Assembly (NCBI GenBank): GCA_048270185.1
Contig: JBLWTJ010000003.1
Location: 96,001 to 160,000 of the forward strand
Origin: Bacteriovoracaceae bacterium
Lineage (GTDB): Bacteria; Bdellovibrionota; Bacteriovoracia; Bacteriovoracales; Bacteriovoracaceae
DNA length: 64,000 nucleotides
Reading direction: 5' to 3'
Shown here: piece after piece, positions 3,642 to 19,975 of the stretch
How the letters are laid out: every line of letters starts with the position of its first letter
Position numbering within the stretch: position 1 is the first letter of the stretch
Program-made: the position numbers and the translations under genes
The notes under the pieces: generated by a model
Seen by the model: only the letters and a program-made list of their open reading frames with translations
What the model was told of the DNA's origin: nothing
Databases searched by the model: none

Positions 3642-5382
3642 GGCCATCTTCTTTAATAAACATAAAAGCTTAATTATTAAGGCCATTGAAGAACTTCAAT
3701 TTGAAGAGCTTTTTACTATTGAAGAGATTAATGGTTCCTATAAGCTTAGATGTAGTGATGAGATTTCATATATATTTGATGGACGAATTAGTGTTTGGGG
3801 AAACCTGCAAATCCAAGCTGTAAGCTTTAAGAAGATTGTTAGTGGGGAAGAAGTTTTCGAGTACACTTTGGCCGATTTCTTCTACGAGACGCAAGATTTG
3901 ACAAAAATGACAGATGAAACGCTTGCACAATTCATTGAAGAAGGTAATCAGACAATATGTGGTGATATGCTTCAACACCAATCTCTTCTAGATTTAAACC
4001 TTTCTGAGATTTCAGGGCTTAACTTTAAAAAAGTTGATCAAATTCTTACGGGACACCCTAAGATCATAATGAATAAGGGCCGTATTGGTTGGGGCAAGGA
4101 TGAGCTAGAGAAGTATGCTCCTGAGGCCAGACAAAGTTATAAGCTCCACTGGTGCGCTATTAAGAAAGACTGTCTTGATTTTGGCCTTGATCTAAGTAAG
4201 CTATCTTTTACTGATATTCTAAAGGACTCTTTAAGTGATAGTGAAATTGTCTACGCTAAGAATATTATTGCTAAGGCAGGTGAAAATTTTGAAGACTATC
4301 TAATCGTGCCAATTCATCCCTGGCAGTGGAGTAAGTACATAAGTATACAATTTGCTGCTTTAATATATCGTCGTTCAATAATTTCAATAGGACGAATCGG
4401 TAATGATTACACTCCACAGGTATCAATTCGTACACTGTCGTCATGTTGTAATAAGAGCAAATACGATGTGAAATTGGCCATTTCAATCCTTAATACCTCT
4501 AGTGTGAGAGGAATTCCTCAAAAGTATATTAAGAATGGGTATCTGCTAAGTGAGAAGATTGAGCAAGTTATTATACAAGATGATTTACTCTCACAAAAAG
4601 TTGGAGTCCTAAAAGAGGTTGCAGCTGTTAGTTGTCCGGCGCCAGAGTTTAATCGTATTACAGGTGGTTCATATCGCTATAAAGAATTACTTGGTTGTGT
4701 ATGGCGAGAGAATGTTGAAGCTAAAATAGATGAAGATGAAATTGCAGTTCCAACGGCGGCCCTCTTACTAACAAAAAATAACGAGTCGCTAATCGGAAAG
4801 TATATTGAACAATCAAAGCTTTCAATTGAGCAGTGGTTAAAAGAATATTTTAAAGCTGTAGTGATTCCACTTTATCACTTACAGGCCGAGCATGGGTTAG
4901 GACTTGTGGCCCATGGACAAAATACAATTTTAGTTCTGAGAGAGGGGATCCCTCAGAAATTAATTATAAAAGACTTTCATGGTGATTTTAGAATAACGAC
5001 AGATTCAAAACACCTTGATGTTGATTTTGGAGTCGAACTCGATCAGTTACCTCCAGAGTATTTAATCCATGATCTTATCACTGGTCATTTTATTACTCTC
5101 TTGCGCTACCTATCTCGAGTTGTTGAAGAAACTCTAAGCTTTAAAGAAGTCGACTTTTATCACTTGATGGGAGAAGTGGTAGAAGCCTACGAAGAAGAAC
5201 ATATTGTTAATCCAAAGATTAGCTTACTTCGAAAAGACTTTGAAAAGGTCTTGGTAAATTCTGTGCGTTTTCAAGCTGGTTACAGTGAAACAGGGCAAAG
5301 ACTTAAACCAATGCTTGGAAGAAATATTAAAAACCCATTACTGTCGAATCAAACTAGAGGAAAAAATGCAAAATACTTATGA
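3631..5382 (+). CDS. iucC: IucC-like NIS siderophore synthetase
   Basis: GHPKIIMNKGRIGW, VPIHPWQW, QVSIRTL, NTSSVRG, AHGQN, KDFHGD, LIHDLITGHF motifs. Confidence 0.9.
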   Translation: MNTRAIFFNKHKSLIIKAIEELQFEELFTIEEINGSYKLRCSDEISYIFDGRISVWGNLQIQAVSFKKIVSGEEVFEYTLADFFYETQDLTKMTDETLAQFIEEGNQTICGDMLQHQSLLDLNLSEISGLNFKKVDQILTGHPKIIMNKGRIGWGKDELEKYAPEARQSYKLHWCAIKKDCLDFGLDLSKLSFTDILKDSLSDSEIVYAKNIIAKAGENFEDYLIVPIHPWQWSKYISIQFAALIYRRSIISIGRIGNDYTPQVSIRTLSSCCNKSKYDVKLAISILNTSSVRGIPQKYIKNGYLLSEKIEQVIIQDDLLSQKVGVLKEVAAVSCPAPEFNRITGGSYRYKELLGCVWRENVEAKIDEDEIAVPTAALLLTKNNESLIGKYIEQSKLSIEQWLKEYFKAVVIPLYHLQAEHGLGLVAHGQNTILVLREGIPQKLIIKDFHGDFRITTDSKHLDVDFGVELDQLPPEYLIHDLITGHFITLLRYLSRVVEETLSFKEVDFYHLMGEVVEAYEEEHIVNPKISLLRKDFEKVLVNSVRFQAGYSETGQRLKPMLGRNIKNPLLSNQTRGKNAKYL

Positions 5383-6637
5383 TATCGTTGGGATCGGATT
5401 GGGGCCTTTTAACCTAAGCTTAGCTGCTTTATTAAACCCTATAAGTTCTGTTAAAAAGAAATTCTTAGATAATAAACCTGAATTTAGTTGGCACCCTGAG
5501 CTTATGTTTGGTGATGCGATGATGCAAACTTCATTTCTAAAAGATCTAGTTACACCTGTGGACCCAAAGAGTTCTTTTAGTTTCTTAAATTACTTAGTTG
5601 AAAATGGACAATTCTATCACTTCTTAAATACTGACCGTAAGGCGATTAATCGCTATGAGTTTCAAGACTATTGTAAGTGGGTATCAAAACAACTCGGCAA
5701 GGATATCAACTTTAATTCAAGAGTAATTGATGTCAAACATGACGGTGAAAAATTTGAAGTTATAAAAGAAGATGGTAGCTACTTTACAAAGAATCTCTGT
5801 GTTGCTTCAGGGCCGACAAAGAATATCCCTGATTGTGCTGAAGATTATCTTTCAAATACATTATTTCATGCAAAATCTAAGTATATGAAGAATTTAGATC
5901 TTACTGGAAAACGCGTCGTTGTCATCGGTGGGGGACAAACTGGTGTTGAAACTTTTAGAAATGCGTTAAACGGTATGTGGGGAAGAGTTGAAAATGTAAA
6001 ACTTCTTTCTGGAAGACATAATCTTCAACCTCTTGATGAAGCTCCATTTACAAATGAAGTTTTCACTCCGGATTTCGTTCTAAACTTCCACTCACTTCCT
6101 CAAGAGCAGAAAGACTCTTATACACAAAGTCAACTTCTTGCAAGTGATGGGAACACTCCTCAGTACCTACAGGAGATGTATAACGAGTTATATCTCGATC
6201 GTTTCTATCTTAAGAAACTTCCTGAGTATACAATTGCTCCGATGCGTTGGTTACAAGCAGTTGAAAAACAAGATGAAGTTTACCAACTATCAATTGAAAA
6301 TCTTTTAAATAAAGATATTGAAAAGATCGAAGCAGACGTTGTTATTCTTGCTACTGGTTTTAAAAGTGTATTACCAAGCTTCCTCGATGGATTAAGTGAA
6401 AATATTGCTAAGGATGCACAAGGGCGAATCGTGGTTAACCAAGACTATAGCCTACAGACAAATATCACAAATGGAAAAATCTATACAATGAACTTTAGCC
6501 GTCATGGGCACGGGATTGCAGACCCTCAAACGAGTCTTATGTCTTGGCGTTCGGCCATGATTGCTAATGATCTCATTGGTACCACACAATATACAACAAT
6601 GAATTCTGGAGAAAGCTTTTTAAGCTTCTTTAACTAA
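5366..6637 (+). CDS. iucD: L-lysine N6-monooxygenase (IucD/SidA family)
   Basis: GIGLGPFNLSLAAL FAD motif, MQTSFLKDLVT, GGGQTG NADPH motif, VILATGF. ATG 5366 follows GAGG. Confidence 0.92.
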   Translation: MQNTYDIVGIGLGPFNLSLAALLNPISSVKKKFLDNKPEFSWHPELMFGDAMMQTSFLKDLVTPVDPKSSFSFLNYLVENGQFYHFLNTDRKAINRYEFQDYCKWVSKQLGKDINFNSRVIDVKHDGEKFEVIKEDGSYFTKNLCVASGPTKNIPDCAEDYLSNTLFHAKSKYMKNLDLTGKRVVVIGGGQTGVETFRNALNGMWGRVENVKLLSGRHNLQPLDEAPFTNEVFTPDFVLNFHSLPQEQKDSYTQSQLLASDGNTPQYLQEMYNELYLDRFYLKKLPEYTIAPMRWLQAVEKQDEVYQLSIENLLNKDIEKIEADVVILATGFKSVLPSFLDGLSENIAKDAQGRIVVNQDYSLQTNITNGKIYTMNFSRHGHGIADPQTSLMSWRSAMIANDLIGTTQYTTMNSGESFLSFFN

Positions 6638-6658
6638 AACAGAGTAAACGGAGAGAAA

Positions 6659-7600
6659 ATGAAACTAGTAATTTTGATGCTTATTTCTTCTCTGACATTT
6701 GCAGCGACAGATAAAGCAGCAAAGTCCCAAGGAGAAGTTAAAAACAAATCATTTAACACAAAAGAAGAAGTTCTTGATAACCCAACTTTAAAGACTCTAT
6801 CAGGCTCTTTAAAAAGATGGTCTTTCTATTCTTCATTTAAGTACAATGCTGGAGCACTTGATAATCTAAATGACGCTGAAAGACCGAATATCAGAAATGC
6901 AGGGAATACAACTTCACTTACAAATTTTACAGGAAACCTTGGGGTTAAGTATCGTCTGTCTAAGTCAGATAACTTATCTCTACAAGTTGGGCTCGAGAAG
7001 AAAGCACCTTTTCACGATAATGTTGATTCAGATAATACAACAGTTCAATATGAGCTTGATACTTATGGAGATAGTTTAAATATAGATAACCCGGTTCTAA
7101 GTTACTTTAAAACATACTATCTTGCAGGAATTCAAAACGTAACATTTCTTCAATATCAATATGCGACTTGGGACTATTACCAAGATTTAGGGATTAATTC
7201 AGTCTTTAATTTAAGTCATTCTCTTGCGTATAAAGTATGGAAAGCTGCTTATGTTGCTGTTTCTGCAAATGCGACACAGTACTTCTATGATAAGAATACC
7301 ATCTCATATAATGGGTTTGAGATTGCTGGACGTGATAGACAGGTTAATCGTTCTTTCTCATTTAGTTTAGCAGGGGAGCTATACTTCTCTCGCTCACTGT
7401 CTCTTAGGATGATCACTGACCTATACACGGCCGATCATTACAGAAGTGATCGAATTAAAGAAAAAGTATTACAACAAACAGTTGCTATGACTTACTTCTT
7501 TACACGTGATATTTCGATTGCACCAAATATTCGTTTTATTGCAGAAGATATCAGAGCTGAGCGTACAAATGTAGGTCTTACAATGAATGTAAACCTATAG
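6659..7600 (+). CDS. Exported protein, probable outer-membrane beta-barrel
   Basis: Signal peptide, alternating aromatic/polar strands, C-terminal NVGLTMNVNL. Last gene before the terminator. Confidence 0.6.
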   Translation: MKLVILMLISSLTFAATDKAAKSQGEVKNKSFNTKEEVLDNPTLKTLSGSLKRWSFYSSFKYNAGALDNLNDAERPNIRNAGNTTSLTNFTGNLGVKYRLSKSDNLSLQVGLEKKAPFHDNVDSDNTTVQYELDTYGDSLNIDNPVLSYFKTYYLAGIQNVTFLQYQYATWDYYQDLGINSVFNLSHSLAYKVWKAAYVAVSANATQYFYDKNTISYNGFEIAGRDRQVNRSFSFSLAGELYFSRSLSLRMITDLYTADHYRSDRIKEKVLQQTVAMTYFFTRDISIAPNIRFIAEDIRAERTNVGLTMNVNL

Positions 7601-7607
7601 AAAATAT

Positions 7608-7631
7608 AAAGGCCTCATTTAAGAGGCCTTT
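7608..7631. terminator. Bidirectional intrinsic terminator
   Basis: AAAGGCCTC-ATTTAA-GAGGCCTTT between convergent genes. Confidence 0.85.
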
Positions 7632-7634
7632 TTA

Positions 7635-8654
7635 TTATGAAATTTCAAAATCATCGTGTCCTGGAATATCTTCTGGATGAGGTTCAACGATATCGACTCC
7701 TAGGTGGAGAATCCTTGTACCAGCATCACAATTAGGCCTAACATTCTTTCCAATGACAACACCTTCACGATTAGCACAGATTACTTCTTTAACTTGTCCA
7801 AAGACATCATAGACTTTAGCGATAACTTGTCCCTTTTCAACTTTATCCGCAAGTTTTGGTAGCACATCCACGATTCCACCTTTTGTCGAATAGATCCAAT
7901 ATGATTTATCACAGACGATCGTATCGGTAATGAGATCATGTACTTCACCTTCAATCATTTTAAAGTAGCGTAGGGTATTTAGAATTCCGTCAAGTGTCTC
8001 GTCAATGAGAGCGTGTTGAAATGCATTGGGATTTCCTATTTCAACTGTGATGGCATGAATGCCATTGTCATTGGCCCACGATCTTAATGTCCCTTCTTCA
8101 TCGTATTTTTGAACGATGATTTGTGGGTTCTGTAGGAAGGCAAGAGTTCTTGTTTCTTCTTTCTCTAGATCTGCTCGTAAGTAGAGACTGTTAACTCGGC
8201 CGTGGCTCGCTGTGTGTAGATCCAGTAGATAGTCGAATTTCGAGACAATTTTTTGAGTGAAGTAGTGAGCATAGATATTACTGGTATTGCCTTGAAGCTT
8301 TCCAGGCATAATTCTATTTAGATCCACGTTATCAGAGAAGTAGCGTTGGTTGGCAAGGTAGCCTGGAACGTTACTAATTGGAACCATAATTAGAGTACCA
8401 TTTAATTTTTTTGGATCAATCTCTTCAATTAGCTTGAAGATTGTTGATATTCCATTAAGCTCATTCCCGTGTATCGCTGCTGTGATACCAAAAACGGGAC
8501 CTTCACCTGAACCTTTAACAATTATTAAAGGTACTCGCCATGGAACTCCTAGAGAATTATCTGAGAGATGAATTTGCAGTCGGTGAACCTCTCCCTTTGC
8601 AAATGAGTTTAGGTCTATTTCTTCAGTTGTTTTTATTATTTGAATATCGCCCAT
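7635..8654 (-). CDS. Succinylglutamate desuccinylase/aspartoacylase family (M14) Zn hydrolase
   Basis: HGNE zinc motif, DLNR, DLHT, TVEIG catalytic Glu, and a C-terminal biotinyl-lipoyl-like region. Confidence 0.9.
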   Translation of the reverse strand: MGDIQIIKTTEEIDLNSFAKGEVHRLQIHLSDNSLGVPWRVPLIIVKGSGEGPVFGITAAIHGNELNGISTIFKLIEEIDPKKLNGTLIMVPISNVPGYLANQRYFSDNVDLNRIMPGKLQGNTSNIYAHYFTQKIVSKFDYLLDLHTASHGRVNSLYLRADLEKEETRTLAFLQNPQIIVQKYDEEGTLRSWANDNGIHAITVEIGNPNAFQHALIDETLDGILNTLRYFKMIEGEVHDLITDTIVCDKSYWIYSTKGGIVDVLPKLADKVEKGQVIAKVYDVFGQVKEVICANREGVVIGKNVRPNCDAGTRILHLGVDIVEPHPEDIPGHDDFEIS

Positions 8655-8667
8655 AATATTTACCTAA

Positions 8668-10101
8668 TTAAATCATAATCTCACTAAATAATGACTTATC
8701 ATTATCTAGGGATTGGAAGAGTTTACTTCTAAAAGTACCTTTCTTACTTGTTAGTTGTATTGCCATTTTATCAATTGCAACAATTGTTAAAATTGTTTGG
8801 ATATAGGCTTCAATAAGGTCATCTGTTCCAATACCAAGTGAATTAAAATCTTTTTGATCCATGAGCATAAGTCTTGACGTATCTGAGTCCCATTGGTTTT
8901 CACCTACTTTTACCGATAAGTTTGTCCCAAGAACATTCCAGCTATCTTCAGGGTACTTTGACTCAAGTGGTGTTCTTGCTCGTCTTGCATAAATTGCACA
9001 AGGCATGAAACCTTTCGGTGATGAATAAACCATCAGTCTTAGGTCGGCGATGTAAATATTTCCCTTCTTATTAGGAACAGTTCCGATATGAAAGAATTTA
9101 CCATGCTGACTAGTCGAACTCCATTCATAGTGACCAATTAAGCTTTGTACGATGAACTGATCGTATTGATAATCCATTTGCATGAAAGCATCGAGTTCTT
9201 CTTGATTCGTTATAGTAAAGACTCCTTGTCCTGCATTAGAATAAGGAATTTTAATAACGGCCTTGCCACCAAACTTTTGTACCCATAGTGGTATTTCTAG
9301 TTTTCCTACGTCTTTAATTGTTTCAGGAACTTGAATTTTTAAACCTGATTCAGCAATCTCTGAGTTGTAAAGTTCATAAGCTTTATTAGCGAGAAGTTTG
9401 TTACGTCCTCCAGAAAGACAAACAAGAGTTGAGTTATAGATAAAAGTTTTAGTTGTGGTAGGAATTCGATTCCACGGCTTTTGTGTAACATAACGAAATG
9501 CCGCACTAATAGGAACTTCTTTACCATTTTCTAATGTGATAATCATCACTCCATCTTCGAATCTTGTGTACTGCTCTTCTCCGTGAAAGTGGGGAACGAG
9601 ATAGACATCTTCACCTGTAAGATCTGCTAGTGTTGACGCATATCCAGAAGTTTCCATATAGTTCTTATCGTAGATTACTGCTAGTGCACCCTTAGGTAAT
9701 TTCTTTTTCTTCTTTTTTAAAGCGGGAAGGAATGAATTCTCAATAAGGAATTTATAACCACGATGTTCGTCTGAATCAGTTCTTGGTGGCATCGACTTTT
9801 GTCCTGATGGGCAAGAGTTTGTTTCGAGAACAACCATGCGACGATTACCTTGTTCAGTTGTAACATAGAATAGATCTGATCCCCCCCAGAAGAAGTGCTT
9901 ACATTCATAATTAAGAATTTCTCTCAGGGTATTTGTATCTATTTGTGGGTTTAGATGACTATATCTTTTAATAACTCTTTCGTGATCGAGATTTAGAAAG
10001 TGACTCACGAGAGGGTGTAGTTGAGAATTTAGTGCTTTTGGGTAGAAATGGTGCTCTTGTTCAAAATGATCAGGTTTAATGACCTCAATTCTTCTCTTCA
10101 A
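8668..10101 (-). CDS. Circularly permuted ATP-grasp amidoligase
   Basis: D...VLETNSCPSG near the N-terminus, followed by KIPYSNAGQGV, FIVQSLI and DLR. TTG start follows GGAG. Confidence 0.75.
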   Translation of the reverse strand: MKRRIEVIKPDHFEQEHHFYPKALNSQLHPLVSHFLNLDHERVIKRYSHLNPQIDTNTLREILNYECKHFFWGGSDLFYVTTEQGNRRMVVLETNSCPSGQKSMPPRTDSDEHRGYKFLIENSFLPALKKKKKKLPKGALAVIYDKNYMETSGYASTLADLTGEDVYLVPHFHGEEQYTRFEDGVMIITLENGKEVPISAAFRYVTQKPWNRIPTTTKTFIYNSTLVCLSGGRNKLLANKAYELYNSEIAESGLKIQVPETIKDVGKLEIPLWVQKFGGKAVIKIPYSNAGQGVFTITNQEELDAFMQMDYQYDQFIVQSLIGHYEWSSTSQHGKFFHIGTVPNKKGNIYIADLRLMVYSSPKGFMPCAIYARRARTPLESKYPEDSWNVLGTNLSVKVGENQWDSDTSRLMLMDQKDFNSLGIGTDDLIEAYIQTILTIVAIDKMAIQLTSKKGTFRSKLFQSLDNDKSLFSEIMI

Positions 10102-10214
10102 ATTAACTCCGAATAAATTGCAAATATTAATGGGTTAATTATAATCCTATAACTTAAATTCGTAGCTAATAATTTTTTTAAATTCTAATAAAAGATAAAT
10201 TATGTCGGCCAATG

Positions 10215-10490
10215 CTAACGTTTAACTGCTTCAGGCCTTAATTCCTCGACAAGATCAACCTTGCGTAAGTCCTTAACGATTTCTTGAGCAACATTAAATA
10301 GTTCAGGACTATCCATTCTTGCCGTATTTTGAATTTCCTTAACTAACTCTTGCACAGGAGTGGCCCCATTTAGCCCATTCCAAATAAAAGCGGCAATAAA
10401 GCTGACCTCAAAGCGCTTGCCCTGGGGGTTAACTAGGATTGGTGTTTGTGATGTAATCTTATTTTCAATATTTCCTTTTTTAATAAACAT
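10215..10490 (-). CDS. Stand-alone PqqD-family / RiPP recognition element (RRE) protein
   Basis: 91 aa with the pattern ILVNPQGKRFEVS-IAAFIWNGLNG-TPVQELVKEI...EIVKDLRKVDLVE. GGAGG RBS. Confidence 0.8.
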   Translation of the reverse strand: MFIKKGNIENKITSQTPILVNPQGKRFEVSFIAAFIWNGLNGATPVQELVKEIQNTARMDSPELFNVAQEIVKDLRKVDLVEELRPEAVKR

Positions 10491-10555
10491 AGCTACCTCC
10501 GTGTTAATTTAATCATACATTGCTAAGATTGATACACAATGCCAACTTGTTCGTA

Positions 10556-10570
10556 TTTGGTATAACCTAA
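10556..10570. promoter_or_regulatory. Putative LysR-type box (TTAG-N7-CTAA, one mismatch)
   Basis: TTTGGTATAACCTAA in the divergent pqqD-like/proB region. Similar boxes at 13845 and 16578. Confidence 0.5.
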
Positions 10571-10639
10571 TTAGCCAATCTCGCCCTTTCGGTATTTTGG
10601 AATTTGATTTATCTTAACTCCATGCCAAGACAAGGGGAT

Positions 10640-11791
10640 ATGATGAAACTTCGAAAGGAGATGCGTGGCGTAAAGCGCCTCGTTGTTAAAGTCGGAAGTA
10701 ATGTAATTACTAAAGAAAACGGTAGCTTAGATAGCCGAAAGATAAGAAAAATTGTTGAAGATATTTGTGACCTAATTGAGTCAGGTATTGAGGTCGTCCT
10801 GGTAAGTTCAGGGGCGGTTAGTGTCGGAAAGTCATTTCTTAAGGAACACCTACCTAGGCGTGGCCAAATCGATTTACAACATTCGGCCAGTGCCGTGGGA
10901 CAGCCAAAATTAATTAATACTTATTCAAGGCTATTTGAGGAGAATCAAATGATTTGCTCTCAAATTCTTCTAACACACGATGACTTTAGAAATCGTAAGA
11001 GGAATCTGCACGCTAAACAAAATATAAATGTTCTACTCAAAAATAATATAACACCAATTCTCAATGAGAATGATTCCATCTCTTTCACAGAAATTGCTCT
11101 GGGCGATAATGATCACCTCGCTGCTCAAACGGCTCAAATGATCAATGCTGATGCGCTTTTAATGATTACTTCAACTAACGGTCTATATGATCGTGATCCT
11201 GGTTTTAAAGATGCAAAACGAATCGCTGAGGTTCCATTTGGAAGTGACATCTTAGAGTCTGTAGATTTTCAAGGTAAGACGGCCGTTGGTAAAGGTGGCA
11301 TGGAATCTAAGGTGCACGCAATTACAAAAATCACACCACTTGGGATTAAGGCAATAATTAGTTCAATGGATACGGAGCGAATGATTATTGATCCATTAAC
11401 AAAAGATCTTGGAACTTATTTTGCACCAAAGAATGCTTATGACCCAGAAGAGAGAAAGGCATGGCTCCTATCAATGAAGAAGCCTAATTGCTATATCGAA
11501 GTTGATAAAGGTGCATTCCTGGCCTTAAACGAGAGTAAATCTCTTCTTCCAAAAGGAATCATAGATGTCTACGGACAATTCTATAAGGGAGACTGTGTCG
11601 ACATTATTTGTGATGGAGAAGTCTTTGCATCTGGTGTTTGCGAATACGGGCATTGTGAAGTTGAACAAATAAAAGGACGCCATAGTGATGAGATCGAAGA
11701 TGTCATTGGTTTTCGAACTTCATGTGAAGTCGTCCATACAATTAACTTAATTTTAGAAAAGGATATTATTGATGAAAAAATTAGCAACTAA
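10640..11791 (+). CDS. proB: Glutamate 5-kinase
   Basis: VVKVGS, VSSGAV, PILNEND, GDNDHL, GKGGMESK and a C-terminal PUA domain. Confidence 0.96.
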   Translation: MMKLRKEMRGVKRLVVKVGSNVITKENGSLDSRKIRKIVEDICDLIESGIEVVLVSSGAVSVGKSFLKEHLPRRGQIDLQHSASAVGQPKLINTYSRLFEENQMICSQILLTHDDFRNRKRNLHAKQNINVLLKNNITPILNENDSISFTEIALGDNDHLAAQTAQMINADALLMITSTNGLYDRDPGFKDAKRIAEVPFGSDILESVDFQGKTAVGKGGMESKVHAITKITPLGIKAIISSMDTERMIIDPLTKDLGTYFAPKNAYDPEERKAWLLSMKKPNCYIEVDKGAFLALNESKSLLPKGIIDVYGQFYKGDCVDIICDGEVFASGVCEYGHCEVEQIKGRHSDEIEDVIGFRTSCEVVHTINLILEKDIIDEKISN

Positions 11792-13010
11792 AGTAAGAAA
11801 AGCTTCAAAGGACTTAATGAAACTTGATATCGAAACAAAGAATAAAATCTTTGACGAGTTAATTAAGAACCTCGATGAAAAGAGAAGCCTTATTATTGAA
11901 AAGAATCAACTTGATCTTGATGAAGCATTTAAAATGGACTTATCGAGTGCCATGGTCGATCGTCTAAAACTAACTAGTGAAAGAATTGATCAGATTATAG
12001 AAGGTGTCAGAACAATCAAGGAGCAACCTGAAATTGTTGGAAGCTTCTATGATGAATTCACTAACGACTTGGGCCTTAGAGTAAAAAAACAAAGAGTACC
12101 AATTGGTGTAATTCTTATGATCTTTGAAAGTCGCCCAAATGTTGTTGTGGACTGTGCTGCCCTTGCTCTTAAGTCTTCAAATGCCATTATCTTAAAAGGC
12201 GGTAAGGAAGCGAAGCACTCTAACGAAGTTTTAGGAAGTATTATCAAGGAAACCCTTGAGAAGTTTACTAATACCGATGTTGTTGAAGTTCTAGCTTCAG
12301 ATAATCGTAGTCACTTAAATGAATTATTAGAATTAAAAGATGAAATTGATGTTGTGATTCCTCGTGGAGGACACGGCTTAATTAATCACGTTTTCGAAAA
12401 TGCTAAAATGCCTGTGATTGCTCACTATCAAGGCCTTTGCCATATGTATATTGACTCTGAAGCTGATGTTGAAAAGGCCGTCTCTCTCGTTGAAAATGCA
12501 AAAACTCAACGCCCTGGTGTATGTAATGCTATTGAAACGCTTCTTATTCACAAGGATATCCTCCCTAAGGTGAATGATAAGCTTGCCAAGCGCTTACTTG
12601 CCAAGGGTTGTGAGTTGAGAGTTGACGAAAGATTTAATGACTTAACGAAAGGGACTTTTGTTAAGGCGTCAAAAGATGATTGGTCAACAGAGTATCTTGA
12701 TAATATTTTATCAATTAAGACTGTGGATAGTCTTGATGATGCAATTTCTCATATTGACCAATACGGAAGTAATCACTCTGAATGTATTATTTCTACAATA
12801 GAAGATAATTGTAACAAATTCCTAAGAAGTGTTGATGCAAGTTGTATTATGGTTAATGCATCAACTCGCTTTAATGATGGTGGACAGTTAGGTCTTGGTG
12901 CCGAACTTGGTATTTCAACAACAAAACTTCACGCTTATGGGCCAATGGGTGTTGAACAGATGACAACTTCTCGTTACGTTGTTGTTGGTGATGGACAGGT
13001 TAGGAGCTAG
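11772..13010 (+). CDS. proA: Gamma-glutamyl phosphate reductase
   Basis: IFESRPNV, LKGGKEA, VIPRGG, CNAIETLL, NASTRFNDG, LGISTTKLHAYGPMG. Confidence 0.97.
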   Translation: MKKLATKVRKASKDLMKLDIETKNKIFDELIKNLDEKRSLIIEKNQLDLDEAFKMDLSSAMVDRLKLTSERIDQIIEGVRTIKEQPEIVGSFYDEFTNDLGLRVKKQRVPIGVILMIFESRPNVVVDCAALALKSSNAIILKGGKEAKHSNEVLGSIIKETLEKFTNTDVVEVLASDNRSHLNELLELKDEIDVVIPRGGHGLINHVFENAKMPVIAHYQGLCHMYIDSEADVEKAVSLVENAKTQRPGVCNAIETLLIHKDILPKVNDKLAKRLLAKGCELRVDERFNDLTKGTFVKASKDDWSTEYLDNILSIKTVDSLDDAISHIDQYGSNHSECIISTIEDNCNKFLRSVDASCIMVNASTRFNDGGQLGLGAELGISTTKLHAYGPMGVEQMTTSRYVVVGDGQVRS

Positions 13011-13013
13011 TCT

Positions 13014-13841
13014 ATGACCGTTAAGAAAGTTGCCGTTATCGGCTGTGGAAATATGGCAAGTGCAGTTGTGCGCTCTTTAGATAAGAGTGACATAGCAGAT
13101 GAGCAATTTGAATTTTATACGTACACTCCTTCAAAGACTAAGGCCGTGAAACTAGCGCAAGAAGTGAATGGTTCTGTACTAGAGAGTCTTAAAGATATTG
13201 AAAAGTGTGATTATATAATGATTGCTTGTAAACCACAGCAGTTTAATGATCTGGCCAATAATTTAGAAGGTATAGATTTATCTTCTAAAGTAATCATTTC
13301 AATTATGGCCGGTATCTCTTTGGCCCAAATTAGTTCTACTTTAAGTACTTCTAAAATTATTAGACTTATGCCAAGTATTCCAATGGAGAGTGGAGAGGGG
13401 ATATGCTTATTAAAGTTCTCTTCAAAAGTTTCCCGTGAAGACAGTGAGTTTCTAAAGAATGCCCTTAAAGATTCTTCAAGTGTTTTTATTATTGAAGATG
13501 AGAAGCTCTTTGATAGGGTGACTGTTATCTCTGCTTCTGGGCCTGCTTATATTTACTACTTCATGTCGGCCATGGAAAAGAGTTTAGTTTCTTGGGGCAT
13601 GAAAGAAGAAGACTGCAGACCTCTTGTGGCCCAACTCTTTCGCGGGAGTGCAAAGAATGCTCTTGATAAATCATCATTTGACCTGGAACTTCTCATCGAT
13701 AAGGTAACTTCGAAGAAAGGCGTCACCATTGAGGCCATTGATAGTTTTCGCGAAGATGAAGTCGAAAAATCTATCCAGTTAGGTCTTTTCAAAGCTGTTC
13801 AGCGTTCAGAGCAGATTAGAGAGAGTATGGAGGGTAATTAA
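13014..13841 (+). CDS. proC: Pyrroline-5-carboxylate reductase
   Basis: IGCGNMA, KPQ, ISIMAGI, SGPAY, VTSKKGVT. Confidence 0.93.
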   Translation: MTVKKVAVIGCGNMASAVVRSLDKSDIADEQFEFYTYTPSKTKAVKLAQEVNGSVLESLKDIEKCDYIMIACKPQQFNDLANNLEGIDLSSKVIISIMAGISLAQISSTLSTSKIIRLMPSIPMESGEGICLLKFSSKVSREDSEFLKNALKDSSSVFIIEDEKLFDRVTVISASGPAYIYYFMSAMEKSLVSWGMKEEDCRPLVAQLFRGSAKNALDKSSFDLELLIDKVTSKKGVTIEAIDSFREDEVEKSIQLGLFKAVQRSEQIRESMEGN

Positions 13842-13844
13842 GGA

Positions 13845-13859
13845 TTAGGTAAACCCTAA
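13845..13859. promoter_or_regulatory. Putative LysR-type box
   Basis: TTAGGTAAACCCTAA inverted repeat (TTAG-N7-CTAA) upstream of the small ORF/putP unit. Confidence 0.5.
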
Positions 13860-13910
13860 CTTGGGTCATTAGCAATTTAGTATGAATTTAGACAATGTTA
13901 AGGTGGATTT

Positions 13911-14096
13911 ATGAATAAGAAAAAATCAGAAAAATTAGTAAGTTGTCGTGTTCCTAAGAAGTCTTCGAATAATGCGAAGAAAGAGGACACTGTTGAAATC
14001 TCTAGGGCGAATCAGTTCAATATCGCCCAAAGACCCCTGGGCTTCCTTAGAAGAAGTCTAATCGAGGATGAGGATAACTGCCTCTCACGTCTCTAA
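13911..14096 (+). CDS. Small hypothetical protein (61 aa)
   Basis: ATG preceded by AAGGTGG. Fills the proC-putP gap. No recognisable family. Confidence 0.45.
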   Translation: MNKKKSEKLVSCRVPKKSSNNAKKEDTVEISRANQFNIAQRPLGFLRRSLIEDEDNCLSRL

Positions 14097-14146
14097 TCAA
14101 GAAATAAATAATTAGATAATACCAATCACAAAAAAAGGATCGTTAA

Positions 14147-15628
14147 ATGATTGTTTACAGTTTCCTCTTTTTTTTACTCCTCTTTGTACTAATTGGAGTT
14201 TCTTCAAGTCTTAAAAGTAAGAAAAACAACTCAGATTATCTACTGGCCGGGCATAATACGCCTCCTTGGTTGGCCGCTTTATCCGCTGTTGCCACTAATA
14301 ATAGTGGGTACATGTTTATCGGACTCATTGGTTATACTTATACCAGTGGTATCCAAGCGTCATGGATTATGATCGGTTGGATCGTCGGTGATATTATGAT
14401 GAGCTTCTTTGTTCATAAGAAACTTCGTGAAATCACAGAAAAAGAAAATCTACTAAGTTTCGGTGGAGTTCTTTCTCGTTGGCAGCGCGGAACAAGTTTT
14501 AGAAAACTAAGATTCATTGTCGGTGTTATTACTATTCTTTTCTTAGGTGTTTATGCCGCTGCTCAGTTTAAGGCCGGATCAAAAGCACTACACGTACTCT
14601 TTGGTTGGGATTACAGTACTGGGGCCATTATCGGTGCCGTCATTGTTTTCGCTTACTGCCTTTCTGGTGGTATTAGAGCATCTATTTGGACGGATGCTGC
14701 ACAGTCGTTTGTTATGATCTTTGCCATGGCCATGCTCTTCTTTGTAGGAGTTAGCCAAGTTGGTGGATTCGATCAATATGTAACGAAACTAGATGCAGTC
14801 TCTCCAGGTTTCTTAAGCTTCATGCCAACAGGGCTTGATGTGGAAGGACCTACTGGGGTTTTCCTATTCATTCTTGGGTGGCTATTTGCTGGATTTGGTG
14901 TTGTTGGTCAGCCACATATTATGATTCGTTTTATGACGATTGATGATTCGAAGAATATGACTAAAACAAAAATCTATTATTATAGTTGGTATATTGCCTT
15001 TACGATCTTAACAATCGGAGTCGGGCTAACTGCAAGACTACTTCTAACAAACTCTGCTAATTTCGATGCAGAGCTTGCACTGCCACTAATGAGTCAGCAA
15101 TTACTACCTGAAGTATTAATTGGTGTTGTTCTTGCCGGTATTTTTGCTGCCACTATGTCGACTGCAGACTCGCAGGTACTGAGCTGTTCTGCCGCCTTTA
15201 CAAGGGATCTACTGCCTAAGAAATCAGATAATGTTTATCTAACAAAATTAGCAACGGCCGGGACGACAATTATTGCTCTTTGTGTTGCTCTATTTGGTAG
15301 TAAGAACGTCTTTGAACTAGTTCTCTTATCATGGTCGATTCTAGCCGCTTGCTTTGGTCCACTGCTTTTTATCTATGCTATCGGGAAGAAAGTATCAGAA
15401 ATTACGGCCATTACAATGGTTGTTGTTGGAGCCGTGGTGACAATCGTATGGATGAATTTAGGTTATGGATCAGTGATCTATGAAGTTGCACCAGGAATTA
15501 TGGCAGGGTTAATTGCTTACTTTATCCTTTCTCTTACTCCTCTAAATGAGATTGTTGATGACAATAAGGTTAAAGATAATCGTACTCAAAACTTAGGTAA
15601 CGATGGAAGCAGCGAACTCTCTAGTTAA
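14147..15628 (+). CDS. putP: Sodium/proline symporter (SSS family)
   Basis: DYLLAG, LSAVATNNSGY, GGIRASIWTD, GQPHIMIRF, AATMSTADSQ; about 13 TM segments. Confidence 0.88.
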   Translation: MIVYSFLFFLLLFVLIGVSSSLKSKKNNSDYLLAGHNTPPWLAALSAVATNNSGYMFIGLIGYTYTSGIQASWIMIGWIVGDIMMSFFVHKKLREITEKENLLSFGGVLSRWQRGTSFRKLRFIVGVITILFLGVYAAAQFKAGSKALHVLFGWDYSTGAIIGAVIVFAYCLSGGIRASIWTDAAQSFVMIFAMAMLFFVGVSQVGGFDQYVTKLDAVSPGFLSFMPTGLDVEGPTGVFLFILGWLFAGFGVVGQPHIMIRFMTIDDSKNMTKTKIYYYSWYIAFTILTIGVGLTARLLLTNSANFDAELALPLMSQQLLPEVLIGVVLAGIFAATMSTADSQVLSCSAAFTRDLLPKKSDNVYLTKLATAGTTIIALCVALFGSKNVFELVLLSWSILAACFGPLLFIYAIGKKVSEITAITMVVVGAVVTIVWMNLGYGSVIYEVAPGIMAGLIAYFILSLTPLNEIVDDNKVKDNRTQNLGNDGSSELSS

Positions 15629-16478
15629 ATATCTCTATCCAATTTCAATAACCCTCCTCTTTGTAGGAGGGTACTTTCTAACACTCTTCAATATAAGAAG
15701 GGTTGAAAAGAGAAAGCTTAAAAATATTCGTAAACGAGATATCAATGATGCAGTTGAAACGGAATCACCAGTTGATGATCAAGAAAAAGAATTAAAATCA
15801 CAAGGGGTCGAGGGAATCGAAGGACGATTTACTTTTATCTCTCGTGCTCTTCCAATTATCTTTTTTATTCTATGGTCATTACTTGTATCCATTCCATACC
15901 TTGGAAAAATTCCAACAGTCTATGTCTCAATTATTGCGGCCATTGTATCTGTAATTGCAGGTTTTTCGCTTAGACCTTTTTTAGAAAACCTCTTTGCTGG
16001 TGTGATCATTTCGTTTTTTAAGTCGATAAAAATTGGCGATACCGTAACGATTGACGGTCACTACGGCCTCATTGAAGAAATTGGACTGACTTACTCAGTC
16101 GTCAAGAAGTGGAATTGGGTTCGAATTGTCATACCTAACTCAAAGTTACTTGAAAAAGAAATTCAAAACTTCACGATGAATGATCATTATGTTTGGGCCC
16201 ATATCGAGTTCTTTGTTTCACCAAGTGCTGATTTGACAAAAGTTAAAGAGATCGCAATTGATATCGCAAAGAAGTCACCATACTTTGCAGATATTGAAGA
16301 CCCATCATTTTGGGTGATGAAATTAGACAAGGATGCAATTGAGTGTTGGCTTGCAGCTTGGGCCAATAGCCCAAGTGATGCGTGGGAGCTTCGAAATGAT
16401 ATGCGAACTCTCTTACATACCGAGCTACAAAAAGCCGGAATTGATTTTCATAAATTAAATATTAAAACACAGGAATAA
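15603..16478 (+). CDS. MscS-family mechanosensitive channel
   Basis: IAGFSLRPFLENLFAGV, IKIGDTV, G-IEEIGL, IPNS motifs. Confidence 0.9.
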   Translation: MEAANSLVKYLYPISITLLFVGGYFLTLFNIRRVEKRKLKNIRKRDINDAVETESPVDDQEKELKSQGVEGIEGRFTFISRALPIIFFILWSLLVSIPYLGKIPTVYVSIIAAIVSVIAGFSLRPFLENLFAGVIISFFKSIKIGDTVTIDGHYGLIEEIGLTYSVVKKWNWVRIVIPNSKLLEKEIQNFTMNDHYVWAHIEFFVSPSADLTKVKEIAIDIAKKSPYFADIEDPSFWVMKLDKDAIECWLAAWANSPSDAWELRNDMRTLLHTELQKAGIDFHKLNIKTQE

Positions 16479-16480
16479 GT

Positions 16481-16570
16481 ATGAACTTTATAAAAAATAT
16501 TATTGAACGTATTCTAAGAATAATTCTTTTTGTCCTTAATCAGTTCTTCCCCCTTTCTTCAGATACTTAG
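16481..16570 (+). CDS. Putative 29-aa amphipathic peptide MNFIKNIIERILRIILFVLNQFFPLSSDT
   Basis: ATG lies 2 nt after the mscS stop, with AGGA 6 nt upstream. Not in the ORF track. Confidence 0.4.
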   Translation: MNFIKNIIERILRIILFVLNQFFPLSSDT

Positions 16571-16577
16571 AAGAGGC

Positions 16578-16592
16578 TTAGGTTTTTGCTAA
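16578..16592. promoter_or_regulatory. Putative LysR autoregulatory box
   Basis: TTAGGTTTTTGCTAA (TTAG-N7-CTAA) directly upstream of the LysR gene. Confidence 0.5.
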
Positions 16593-16625
16593 TTTGTGTT
16601 CAACTTGTTAAGCTAGGATGTATCA

Positions 16626-17603
16626 ATGATTAGGGGTTTGGCCTTGGAGAAACTTAAAGATATTAACTGGAATCACCTTTATTGCTTCTATGAAGTTGCC
16701 AAGGTGCAGTCTTTGAAAAAAGGCGCACAAATTATTGGAACTTCGTCTCCAACTCTGAGTGAACAATTAAAGAGACTTGAAAATAAATTCAATATGAAGC
16801 TTTTTCATCGTAGTTCTAAGGGATTAAGTCTTACACCTGAGGGAACACTTCTCTTTGAAAAAACCAAAGGTATATTTGAAGAGGGAAGTAAGCTCCTTGA
16901 GCACTTTTCTGAGGATGTTGTAGGAGGTTATCCTGTCTCTATTGGCATAGAGGAGACGATCTCTCACGACTTGGCCACAGAGTTTGCCTCTCAGTATTGG
17001 GACCTATACACAAAGTACGGAACAGTTAATACTATTCGCCAAAGTGATCACGATATTCTCATTGATAATCTCTTGCGTGGAAATATTGACTGGGGAATTT
17101 CACTAAGAAAACCTAAGAGGAAGTCTCTTGAAGTAGCAGAGATCGGTTCATTTGAAATTGTCTTTTGTTGCTCAGAAGAGTTATTTAATAAATTTAAAGA
17201 CGTAAAAGATCTACTTGTTAATATTCCATTTGCAGAAAGTAATTGGGATAAAACTCTCAACAAGGTTATCTTTCAACACTTAAGAAAGAATGGTGTTGTT
17301 CCAAAAGAGAAGATCTACAGCGACCATATCGATTTTGTTCATAAACTCTGTGCTCGTGGACGTTGTGTCATGTTTCTGCCACGAAATCCACTAGAGGGCT
17401 ATGAGGGTATTAAAACTTTTCAATTAGATGAGCCACTAAAAATGTCTCTCTATGCTATTTGGAAGAAGTCTGATGAAGGACTTATTTCAATTCGTAAGTT
17501 ACAAGAGCTGTTTCAGACAAAATTATCGAATGTTCCAAAGCGCTATGAAGATGTGGACCTTCAAATTGAAGTTTCAGATGTTTCTGAAGATCTACTGCGT
17601 TAG
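16626..17603 (+). CDS. LysR-family transcriptional regulator
   Basis: NWNHLYCFYEVAK...SPTLSEQLKRLE...LFHR...LTPEG HTH. Start may be TTG 16644. Confidence 0.92.
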   Translation: MIRGLALEKLKDINWNHLYCFYEVAKVQSLKKGAQIIGTSSPTLSEQLKRLENKFNMKLFHRSSKGLSLTPEGTLLFEKTKGIFEEGSKLLEHFSEDVVGGYPVSIGIEETISHDLATEFASQYWDLYTKYGTVNTIRQSDHDILIDNLLRGNIDWGISLRKPKRKSLEVAEIGSFEIVFCCSEELFNKFKDVKDLLVNIPFAESNWDKTLNKVIFQHLRKNGVVPKEKIYSDHIDFVHKLCARGRCVMFLPRNPLEGYEGIKTFQLDEPLKMSLYAIWKKSDEGLISIRKLQELFQTKLSNVPKRYEDVDLQIEVSDVSEDLLR

Positions 17604-18013: not shown

Positions 18014-19090
18014 TTGAAAAACTTTTTATATATTTCTATTTTATTACTTAACGCGCAAGTTTTTGCACAATCACTATCAAAAAACTCAAGAGGAAGCAGC
18101 TTCAATCCGGCCATCGGTCTAAATGCTCTTACTCTTTATAAGAACTCTAGCCGTGACAATCACGAAGATGGATTTCAACTTCAAGAAGCTGAACTTCAAT
18201 TTAGTGCGGATGTCGATGCTTACTTTAGAGCTGAGGCAACAATTGGAATTCACAAAGAGCATCATGAGGACGATGCAGCTGAAGAAGAGCATGGGTATGT
18301 TGTTGAACCTGAAGAGATCTTTGTTGAGACAATTTCAATTCCAGCAGTAACGATTAAGGCCGGGAAATTCTATACACAATTTGGAAAGTACAATATGGTT
18401 CACACTCATGCTCAACCATTTATTTACCGTGGTGTTGTTCAAGAGTATATGTTTGGACACGAAGGTCTTTCTGAAGTAGGTGTAAGTTTATCTTACCTCG
18501 CACCACTTCCATGGTTTAGCGATATCACTGTTCAAGTCCTACAGCCTACAAACGAAGAGTTATTTGAAGAGTGTCATCACTGTATTGCAACTGTTGCTAA
18601 TGTGAAGAATCTTTGGGATCTGTCTGACTCACTGACGTTAGAGTGGGGACTTTCTGGATTATATGCAGATAATGAAAATCATGATTCAGGACTTGATGAA
18701 AAAGTAACTGTTCTTGGCTCAGACCTTACATTCAAATGGCGACCAGTTAAAAATGGTAAAGACGCTTCTTTTATTTGGTCAACAGAGTTCATCCATAGAA
18801 ATCTTGAAGGAACTAAGGATGAGAAAAATGGTGGTGTTTCATCATTTATTCGCTACCAGCTATCTCAACGTTGGTATGCATCGGCCCAGTATGAATTCCT
18901 AGGTCTTGGAAAGGATGAGAATTTAGCAGATCAAAATGTTTACACAGGAGCACTATCTTTTGTTCCAACTGAGTTTTCAGCAGTTAGACTCCAGTATGAC
19001 CAGATTCATGATGGTGAAGAAAGAGAAGAGAGAAGAGTTTCAATGCAATTAAGCTTTAGCATTGGTGCTCACCCTGCACACGTTTACTAG
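18014..19090 (+). CDS. Outer-membrane metal (Zn) uptake porin/receptor-like protein
   Basis: Signal peptide, FNPAIG, His/Glu-rich loop HKEHHEDD, HTH, C-terminal IGAHPAHVY. Confidence 0.78.
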   Translation: MKNFLYISILLLNAQVFAQSLSKNSRGSSFNPAIGLNALTLYKNSSRDNHEDGFQLQEAELQFSADVDAYFRAEATIGIHKEHHEDDAAEEEHGYVVEPEEIFVETISIPAVTIKAGKFYTQFGKYNMVHTHAQPFIYRGVVQEYMFGHEGLSEVGVSLSYLAPLPWFSDITVQVLQPTNEELFEECHHCIATVANVKNLWDLSDSLTLEWGLSGLYADNENHDSGLDEKVTVLGSDLTFKWRPVKNGKDASFIWSTEFIHRNLEGTKDEKNGGVSSFIRYQLSQRWYASAQYEFLGLGKDENLADQNVYTGALSFVPTEFSAVRLQYDQIHDGEEREERRVSMQLSFSIGAHPAHVY

Positions 19091-19099
19091 GAGTATTAT

Positions 19100-19975
19100 A
19101 TGAAGTTACTAATAAGCTTATTAGTAAGTTTTAATATTTTTGCTTCGTTAAATGTTGTGACAACGACTTCTAATTTGGCCGCTGTTGCCAAAGAAATTGG
19201 GGGAGATAAGATTGATATTATCTCCCTTGCTAAAGGAAGTCAGGACCCACATTTTCTTGAAGCAAAACCAAGTTATACTTTTAAAGTAGCTAGGGCTGAT
19301 TTACTTATTAGTGTTGGCGCTGAATTAGAGATTGGTTGGCTTCCTCTTATTGTGAGAGGAAGTCGTAATCCTAAGTTAAGAGAGGGGAATATTGGTCGCC
19401 TTGTTGTCGCTGATAATATCGAACTAATTAAAGAGCATTCTGGTCCAATTTCACGTGCTCAAGGTGATGTTCACCCCGAGGGAAATCCTCACTTAATGCT
19501 TGGGCCTTCAAATAGTATCAAGGTTGCAAAGTTGATCCTTGATCGCTTTAGTAAACTTGATGCAGAAAATACTAAGTTCTACCAAGATCGCTTTGAAAGT
19601 TTTTCTAAGCGAATGAATAATCTCATCCTTGAGCTGAGAAAGAGTATTGTGGAAGGTAAGAAAATAATTACTTATCATCGAACACTGACTTACTTTCTTG
19701 CTGAGTTTGGTGTGAATACCTTGGAAGTCCTTGAACCAAAGCCAGGTATACCTCCGACAGCATCACATATTATCAATGTTATTAATATTGTTAAAACAAA
19801 TAAGCTTGATCGTATCATTGTTGAGAATTACTTTGATACTAGTGTTGCTCATCGAGTAAAGAAATCTGTCCCATCGATTAAAATTTTCAGTGTTCCTGTT
19901 GCCGTTAATGGCGATAAGGAGTCTGGTGATATCTTTAAGCTTTATCGCCAGATTGCAAAGGCATTGGTGAAGTAG
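19100..19975 (+). CDS. Metal ABC transporter substrate-binding protein (ZnuA/TroA family)
   Basis: QDPHF, GDVHPEGNPH, TYH, EPKPGIPP. Confidence 0.92.
   Translation: MKLLISLLVSFNIFASLNVVTTTSNLAAVAKEIGGDKIDIISLAKGSQDPHFLEAKPSYTFKVARADLLISVGAELEIGWLPLIVRGSRNPKLREGNIGRLVVADNIELIKEHSGPISRAQGDVHPEGNPHLMLGPSNSIKVAKLILDRFSKLDAENTKFYQDRFESFSKRMNNLILELRKSIVEGKKIITYHRTLTYFLAEFGVNTLEVLEPKPGIPPTASHIINVINIVKTNKLDRIIVENYFDTSVAHRVKKSVPSIKIFSVPVAVNGDKESGDIFKLYRQIAKALVK

Follow-up and report, generated by a model that had tools for sequence, protein, structure and literature searches.

The locus studied here lies between positions 7635 and 17603 of a 64,000-nucleotide stretch of DNA from a Bacteriovoracaceae bacterium (hereafter the window) and carries two groups of genes that diverge from each other. 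On the minus strand it encodes a small PqqD-like protein, a predicted ATP-grasp amide ligase and a zinc hydrolase; on the plus strand it encodes ProB, ProA and ProC, which synthesize proline from glutamate, followed by a sodium:solute symporter (SSS), an MscS channel and a LysR regulator. The window genes were taken from a list of open reading frames (ORFs) and scanned against Pfam and NCBIfam, and the scans recovered every gene named in an initial annotation of the locus, at its position and in its orientation, including the divergent arrangement of the two groups (Table 1). That annotation had read the locus as one system, in which ligase and hydrolase make and break a proline- or glutamate-containing osmolyte or peptide. 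Comparison with other genomes showed instead that the conserved unit consists of the ligase and the hydrolase, to which a regulator and a second ligase may be added, and that the seven-gene "system" is a local juxtaposition, i.e. a mobile two-gene module standing beside an osmoadaptation cluster.

The conserved unit

To define the unit, we compared the window proteins with the neighbourhoods of 80 ligase loci from species-representative genomes of Bdellovibrionota, Bacteroidota and Gammaproteobacteria and clustered all ORFs of these loci. The hydrolase gene was found downstream of the ligase gene and on the same strand in 75 of the 80 loci; of the remaining five, three are truncated by the end of a contig (L056, L064, L070), and the flanks of the other two (L004, L059) are complete. 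The two genes are also close in the window, where the hydrolase gene starts 13 bp past the ligase stop codon and the ligase gene itself begins with TTG, with GGAG 5 nt upstream of the start. The pairing of the ligase with an AstE-family hydrolase is thus tight. The proline and symporter genes behaved otherwise: proB was near the ligase in 3/80 loci, and proA, proC and the symporter gene in 2/80 each, these two being 90%-identical Halobacteriovorax genomes (L002 and L003). PqqD was near the ligase in a single locus by tblastn, and a hidden Markov model built from 16 PqqD sequences of the family likewise detected a PqqD-like ORF within 6 kb of the ligase in 1/80. These low counts indicate that the seven-gene system is a local arrangement. 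Outside the genus the homologues have no conserved link to the proline genes, an outcome that the initial annotation had named in advance as speaking against its proposal.

Judged by the names of its nearest relatives, the bacterium is Halobacteriovorax-like. Within the genus the layout recurs. The ligase pair lies about 5.3-5.7 kb from the MscS gene of the cluster in all five ligase-bearing genomes among the 6 sampled, and it diverges directly from proB in the four cases examined (window, G015, G138 and L002/L003). Elsewhere the module has other neighbours, among them a LysR gene of another subfamily directly upstream of the ligase (34/80 loci), a GshB/RimK-like classical ATP-grasp (18/80), which in Saprospiraceae is often placed between ligase and hydrolase, MscS-family channels (10/80, L002 and L003 included) and DUF2391 membrane proteins (7/80). 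The genome of the window has no orthologue of the module's LysR, the best match being the LysR of the osmoadaptation cluster with 29% identity, and no orthologue of the GshB-like second ligase.

Table 1. Genes and other features of the locus, with positions in the window and the matches on which their labels rest
Feature	Positions	Strand	Match or evidence
Terminator-like hairpin, bidirectional, 3' of the hydrolase gene	7608..7631	both	9-bp stem, 5 GC pairs
AstE/AspA-family DoeB-like zinc amidohydrolase, 339 aa	7635..8654	-	PF24827 118.7 bits, cut-off 25
Permuted ATP-grasp amide ligase (predicted), 477 aa	8668..10101	-	no Pfam/NCBIfam model
Conserved region directly 5' of the ligase gene	10102..10214	-	alignment with G138, G015, L002, L003
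PqqD-like small protein, 91 aa	10215..10490	-	PF05402 30.1 bits, cut-off 23.4
proB	10604..11791	+	TIGR01027 325 bits, cut-off 186
proA	11769..13010	+	NF001221 536.7 bits, cut-off 289
proC	13014..13841	+	TIGR00112 192.1 bits, slightly below cut-off 196.75
Sodium:solute symporter (SSS)	14147..15628	+	248 bits vs PutP cut-off 515.5
MscS channel	15603..16478	+	26-nt overlap with symporter gene
LysR regulator	16626..17603	+	Pfam/NCBIfam scans

Fold and family of the ligase and the hydrolase

The ligase matched no Pfam or NCBIfam model in the scans of the window; a search of the PDB with the single sequence gave no match below E 1, and a profile search of the same database gave PurK as its top match at only E 0.61. 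Its own family is extensive. Of the 8000 candidates scored in a word-indexed search, more than 3800 were relatives at E<=0.001, and an exhaustive search of representatives clustered at 50% identity yielded 767 at the same threshold; among the 120 matches listed, the relatives are 75-89% identical to the ligase and all those named by their source are called "hypothetical". Going by source names, eukaryotic homologues occur in Podila verticillata, a soil fungus of the Mortierellaceae (54% identity), in bdelloid rotifers (Rotaria) and in the parasitic nematodes Trichinella and Trichuris. A survey of 20 longer homologues revealed no informative fusion. One of them, a Trichinella entry that its source calls Ctf18-like, has AAA/RFC-lid domains, probably because two gene models were merged.

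Alignment of 33 family members showed that D76, E93, K284, Q319, D353, R355, R373, T393, N394 and R410 are invariant and that N95 is nearly so (at least 90%). E93 and N95 form an ExN motif inside the segment LETNSCPSG, which precedes K284, the lysine of the ATP loop, carried in turn by the glycine-rich loop VIKIPYSNAGQGV; the unusual place of the motif near the N-terminus, pointed out in the initial annotation, is therefore borne out by the conservation of its residues. An AlphaFold2 model built from this alignment reached a predicted local distance difference test score (pLDDT) of 94.8 and a predicted template modelling score (pTM) of 0.94. Searching with this model by Foldseek, we obtained PDB entry 3k1t at the first rank (E 4e-9), followed by 3n6x, the yeast, human and plant glutathione synthetases, Cp1B (9cjn, rank 4), glutathionylspermidine synthetase and YjfC/YgiC. 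The permuted enzymes align to residues 14-426 or thereabouts, whereas the classical LysX, Ddl and RimK align only to about 138-445. Given that the N-terminal segment bearing ExN is matched only by permuted ligases, the initial assignment as a permuted ATP-grasp is correct. On the strength of the model, the ligase has the circularly permuted form of this fold and belongs to a family that has neither a name nor a profile model. Fold, ATP-binding lysine, glycine-rich loop and Mg-binding ExN residues, the features of the ATP-grasp superfamily, were all found, and the glutathione synthetase-type fold, against which the initial annotation had proposed to compare the gene, was recovered.

The closest fold, 3k1t from Methylobacillus flagellatus, was deposited as a putative gamma-glutamylcysteine synthetase and shares 10% identity with the ligase in the structural alignment. 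The entry 3k1t probably belongs to Pfam PF08886 (GshA). None of the 33 ligase members matched PF08886 or a recognisable permuted or glutathione-type ligase family, such as CP_ATPgrasp, GSH_synth_ATP and GSP_synth, at E up to 10. Comparison of the ligase family with an alignment of 12 PF08886 proteins by hhalign gave a probability of 0.7%. The two families differ in distribution too, PF08886 being of the housekeeping kind (106/201 sampled genomes of one class) and the ligase family being patchy and accompanied by a hydrolase. The eukaryotic glutathione and homoglutathione synthetases (2hgs, 1m0w, 3kal) match the ligase in fold at 10-13% identity with no match in Pfam, and glutathionylspermidine synthetase and E. 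coli YgiC and YjfC (2io8, 7uk6, 7uk8) match it in fold and not in sequence, the ligase having no amidase domain; of these relatives, only the E. coli enzymes have a known activity. Cp1B of the fungal E-64 pathway, which reportedly couples an amino acid with a dicarboxylic acid, resembles the ligase in being an ATP-grasp without a Pfam domain; it differs from it in sequence (13% identity) and in setting, since it belongs to a secondary-metabolite cluster that has an oxygenase and no hydrolase partner. According to passages of PMC12568646, no Pfam domain is detectable in this ATP-grasp, its fold matches are glutathione-synthetase-like, and its cluster also encodes a pyridoxal phosphate-dependent decarboxylase.

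The partner of the ligase scored above its Pfam threshold, and its top NCBIfam match was TIGR02994 (DoeB), over the full length and with 100.3 bits, under the cut-off of 402.7. A profile of the hydrolase searched against the PDB matched 3cdx, an uncharacterised protein (3e-27), DoeB (6twl/6twm, full length, 2e-25) and AstE (1yw4, 5.6e-4). H62, E65, H147 and E205 are invariant in 27 partner sequences and presumably correspond to the zinc ligands and the catalytic glutamate of aspartoacylase; with these roles assumed, the His-Glu-His site and the glutamate of the AstE/AspA zinc hydrolases are intact. The label M14 given to the protein initially is therefore a loose one, and a place in the AstE/AspA family nearest DoeB describes it better. 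DoeB/EutE is the N-acetyl-L-2,4-diaminobutyrate deacetylase of ectoine breakdown. By its sequence, the hydrolase has DoeB as nearest characterised relative and does not qualify as a DoeB equivalog, and the window has no DoeA partner. Inspection of the hydrolase by eye revealed no obvious signal peptide, suggesting that ligase and hydrolase are probably both cytoplasmic.

Proposed function of the pair and its osmoadaptation neighbours

The relation of the module to osmoadaptation genes was examined in 151 sampled genomes of the family, from 69 genera; all co-occurrence counts given for this sample ignore relatedness. The ligase was detected in 64 of the 151 genomes, in 28 genera and in 4 of 6 sampled congeners, indicating that it is accessory. 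An orthologue of the cluster's MscS was present in 38 genomes, and the ligase in 33 of these 38 vs 31 of the 113 without it. Where both lie on one contig, they are 4-6 kb apart in 6 genomes (five of genus g1 and one of g59), 20 kb in G141 and G010, 33 kb in G145, 53 kb in G068 and G099 and 362 kb in G003; thus they are within 55 kb in 11 genomes of 5 genera and within 6 kb in 6 genomes of 2 genera. They lie on different contigs in 21 genomes. In G059 the module adjoins the LysR end of the cluster, whereas in the window it adjoins the proB end, which argues that the neighbourhood survived rearrangement.

What is conserved in the cluster is a trio of symporter, overlapping MscS and LysR (14147-17603 in the window, 8653-12894 in L094 and 6190-9538 in L100), and the genes attached to the trio differ: proBAC in the window and in G059, and AblB, a beta-lysine N-acetyltransferase (TIGR03827 304 bits, above the cut-off), in G003. 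These combinations, proBAC or AblB with symporter, MscS and LysR, are interchangeable osmolyte cassettes. The symporter carries a family-level label only: it is of the SSS family, and its score against the PutP cut-off leaves it unproven as a proline carrier, so that the name putP does not apply as an equivalog. The module of G141 (L097 9337-12812) is followed by an ectoine-hydrolase-like gene (NF038259/DoeA_2 404 bits, below the cut-off of 575) and has a DoeB-like gene close by (355 bits, below 402.7). A cystathionine gamma-synthase-family gene also stands beside the LysR-ligase-hydrolase operon of this genome. We concluded that within the family the module does keep loose company with the osmoadaptation cluster. 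Passages of PMC8067016 report that marine lineages of the phylum are enriched in mscS and proA, and a shared habitat could therefore yield the co-occurrence of ligase and MscS; shared marine ancestry or habitat could explain the association.

The tight pairing of ligase and hydrolase makes a make-and-break pair for some amide a reasonable reading, and we favour such a pair for a small amide metabolite with a probability of roughly 0.6. Starting from the observed fold, motifs, pairing and distribution, we infer a chemistry, a make-and-break logic and, further removed, any link to stress. Most likely the ligase would activate a carboxylate as an acyl phosphate and then couple an amine to it, and the hydrolase, acting as a DoeB-like N-acyl-amino-acid amidohydrolase, would most likely cleave the amide made by the ligase or a close derivative of it, the two together setting the level of a small cytoplasmic amide. 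The polyamine and arginine genes found near some modules, the kinship with DoeB, the invariant arginines of the ligase and its polyamine-ligating fold relatives favour as product an N-acyl basic amino acid or acyl-diamine, probably of the glutamyl, aspartyl, succinyl or acetyl type, which is our best guess. In other lineages the module comes with its own LysR and sometimes with a second GshB/RimK-like ligase; in the genus of the window, where it has no LysR of its own and stands back to back with the osmoadaptation cluster, it may share the control region of the latter, and the PqqD gene is, on this reading, a later insert between the module and the proB cluster. A literature search found no described pathway for the ligase-hydrolase pair, in agreement with the initial annotation.

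Several observations weigh against this reading. A ligase and a hydrolase of the same bond in one operon would run a futile cycle unless they are regulated. The wider neighbourhood of the module is varied and points several ways: arginine decarboxylase and agmatinase follow the module in 5/80 loci and another decarboxylase does so in L062, a Ser/Thr kinase (cluster c4) is found in 9/80 and a PP2C phosphatase (c6) in 7/80, and a fusion of GNAT and CN-hydrolase domains in 4/80. Furthermore, the co-occurrence with osmoadaptation genes is uncorrected for ancestry, in lineages whose marine members are already rich in mscS and proA. The ligase is patchy even within genus and family, indicating that it is not needed for life at sea, and its homologues are also present in a soil fungus, in rotifers and in parasitic nematodes.

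It is against this background that we judge the more specific proposal of an osmolyte. According to it, the pair makes and degrades a compatible solute or stress metabolite not described so far, be it a dipeptide, an acyl-polyamine or an N-acyl diamino acid, the module has repeatedly settled beside the interchangeable osmolyte cassettes in marine predatory bacteria, and the same family supplies the metabolite in some fungi, rotifers and nematodes. We regard this as a minority hypothesis, possible and on balance doubtful. Of the osmolyte idea put forward initially, the make-and-break pair for some amide thus survives as reasonable, the proline system with its PqqD component does not, and the osmolyte product is retained with this reserve. 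A precedent is the synthesis of the osmoprotective dipeptide N-acetylglutaminylglutamine amide (NAGGN) by Ngg, an ATP-grasp-type ligase. Ngg belongs to another ligase family and is fused to an acetyltransferase.

The pair could alternatively act in sequence, under the control of LysR, on an amide or amine that is imported or stems from prey, for instance a polyamine or an ectoine breakdown product resembling N-acetyl-diaminobutyrate. Either the hydrolase would free an amine that the ligase then conjugates, or the ligase would add a protecting group that the hydrolase removes later, as in the gamma-glutamyl-putrescine route and in the LysW/LysX-LysK route. LysR regulators typically control substrate-induced operons, and a module-specific LysR in 34 of the 80 loci fits this explanation, as do the DoeA-like and DoeB-like genes beside the module of G141, the arginine decarboxylase and agmatinase genes mentioned above and the fold relatives YgiC and YjfC, E. 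coli enzymes that are peptide-spermidine ligases by the title of a paper cited in PMC12568646. However, the pair is not regularly accompanied by an oxidase, a transaminase or a transporter in the 80 loci, and each of these contexts is found in only 1 to 6 of them. We consider the sequential pathway unlikely, though the most probable of the alternatives to the make-and-break pair.

Much less probable is a role in tagging, in which the ligase would add amino acids to the C-terminus of a protein or peptide, as RimK and the tubulin ligases do, and the hydrolase would remove them like a carboxypeptidase. The best fold matches of the ligase are small-molecule ligases, and these matches cover an N-terminal substrate domain that RimK does not have; DoeB, the closest relative of the hydrolase, deacetylates a small molecule, and clustering of the ORFs of the 80 loci brought out no conserved target gene.

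Slimmer still are the chances of a thiol-peptide route, in which the ligase would be of the gamma-glutamylcysteine type, like 3k1t, and the GshB-like neighbour would complete a glutathione-like tripeptide. The deposited name of 3k1t and the GshB-like partner in 18/80 loci speak for this route, and an Atlas feature search returned PF08886 clusters at 0.91, but the profile-profile comparison with PF08886 found next to nothing in common (0.7%, as given above). The window genome lacks an orthologue of the GshB-like partner; at other places it encodes a canonical gshA (PF04262, 439 bits) as well as GSH-S_ATP proteins. The presence of the canonical gshA argues against a glutathione role of the ligase, and the glutathione route was rejected on this account.

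The ligase family is large, lacks a family model and is strongly conserved, with 54% identity between bacterium and fungus. Its nearly constant association with one hydrolase implies an unrecognised small amide metabolite common to bacteria and some eukaryotes. Identification of the product would assign a role to thousands of genes now called "hypothetical" and, were the link to stress true, would add a new compatible solute.

The PqqD gene and the flanks of the module

The initial annotation had counted PqqD as a component of the system, namely a stand-alone RiPP recognition element (RRE; RiPP, ribosomally synthesized and post-translationally modified peptide). The protein passes the threshold of PF05402, and a word search found no close relatives of it. 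In a six-frame search PqqD was found in 24 of the 151 family genomes, and its position there follows the osmoadaptation cluster. In the congener G138 it is placed as in the window, whereas G015, L002 and L003 (90%-identical relatives) have the same layout minus PqqD, with a ligase-proB gap of about 225-235 bp; three of the five ligase-bearing genomes of the genus (G015, G106 and G146) have no PqqD. In G141, PqqD diverges from proBAC. G059 has one paralogue divergent from proB and a second one behind the hydrolase gene, at the far end of the same cluster, and in G003 two paralogues flank the AblB-symporter-MscS-LysR cluster, 360 kb away from the ligase. These data show that PqqD is a neighbour of the module, not one of its components, and goes together with the osmoadaptation cluster; the claim of a stand-alone RRE working with the ligase is not supported.

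The same distribution speaks against an integrated system, in which PqqD as an RRE would present a peptide to the ligase, the hydrolase would trim it and the proline cluster would supply a building block. The co-orientation of the three genes in the window, the score of PqqD, the recurrence of the layout in G138 and the second paralogue after the hydrolase gene in G059 are consistent with it. Against these stand the single PqqD-bearing locus among 80, the genomes of the genus that keep the ligase without PqqD, the remote PqqD paralogues of G003 and the grouping of the ligase fold with small-molecule ligases. In addition, a listing of small ORFs at 7500-10700 brought out no candidate for a precursor peptide. 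Of the marks of a RiPP-type system, neither a conserved co-occurrence of PqqD with the ligase nor an evident precursor gene was found. This explanation is the least probable of those weighed here and can hardly be upheld. A LysW-like amino-group-carrier pathway of ligase, kinase, reductase and hydrolase was rejected, as proB and proA are canonical equivalogs and their linkage to the ligase does not extend beyond one genus and some of its relatives.

In Bacteriovoracaceae, osmoadaptation clusters are repeatedly bordered by two stand-alone PqqD paralogues, one diverging from proB or AblB and the other located after LysR; PqqD-like genes were mapped to 7750-8013 and 12897-13184 in L094 and to 4397-4708 and 15496-15759 in L100. 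ORFs of 61, 82 and 95 aa near osmoadaptation clusters are not PqqD-like.

Alignment of the window with G138, G015, L002 and L003 showed that the 110 bp upstream of the ligase gene are conserved with or without PqqD. This region holds the palindrome ATTATAAT, about 40 nt upstream of the ligase start. A consensus promoter match was detected at 10118-10145, in a scan that is uninformative as a whole (5 sites found vs 10.4 expected), and no terminator-like site was found in the gap between PqqD and ligase. Twelve sequencing rows hold the stretch or a part of it, and RNA is on record in one. A contig of 356 nt from this row matches positions 9788-10141 exactly, covering the 5' end of the ligase gene and about 40 nt before it, and stops short of PqqD; a second piece from the same row, of 36 nt, comes from something else. 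The RNA row is a poly-A RNA-seq library labelled compost metagenome, which is odd for a marine predator, and it could contain carried-over DNA. The 356-nt contig cannot prove transcription and hints, at best weakly, at an independent transcript.

Beyond the hydrolase gene, positions 3625-7600 hold a siderophore cluster with IucA/IucC and a lysine/ornithine monooxygenase, whose last gene encodes a 313-aa barrel-like protein without a Pfam match. The gap between proC and the symporter gene contains a lysine-rich ORF of 61 aa (13911-14096), which has counterparts of about 48% identity in L002 and L003 (tblastn E 6e-8 and 2e-7); it may encode a small protein or represent a conserved leader. Downstream of LysR, positions 18014-20781 carry a metal-uptake operon composed of a ZnuA-type binding protein, an ABC-3 permease and a phosphate-porin-like protein, the last assigned by a weak match (E 3.6e-4).

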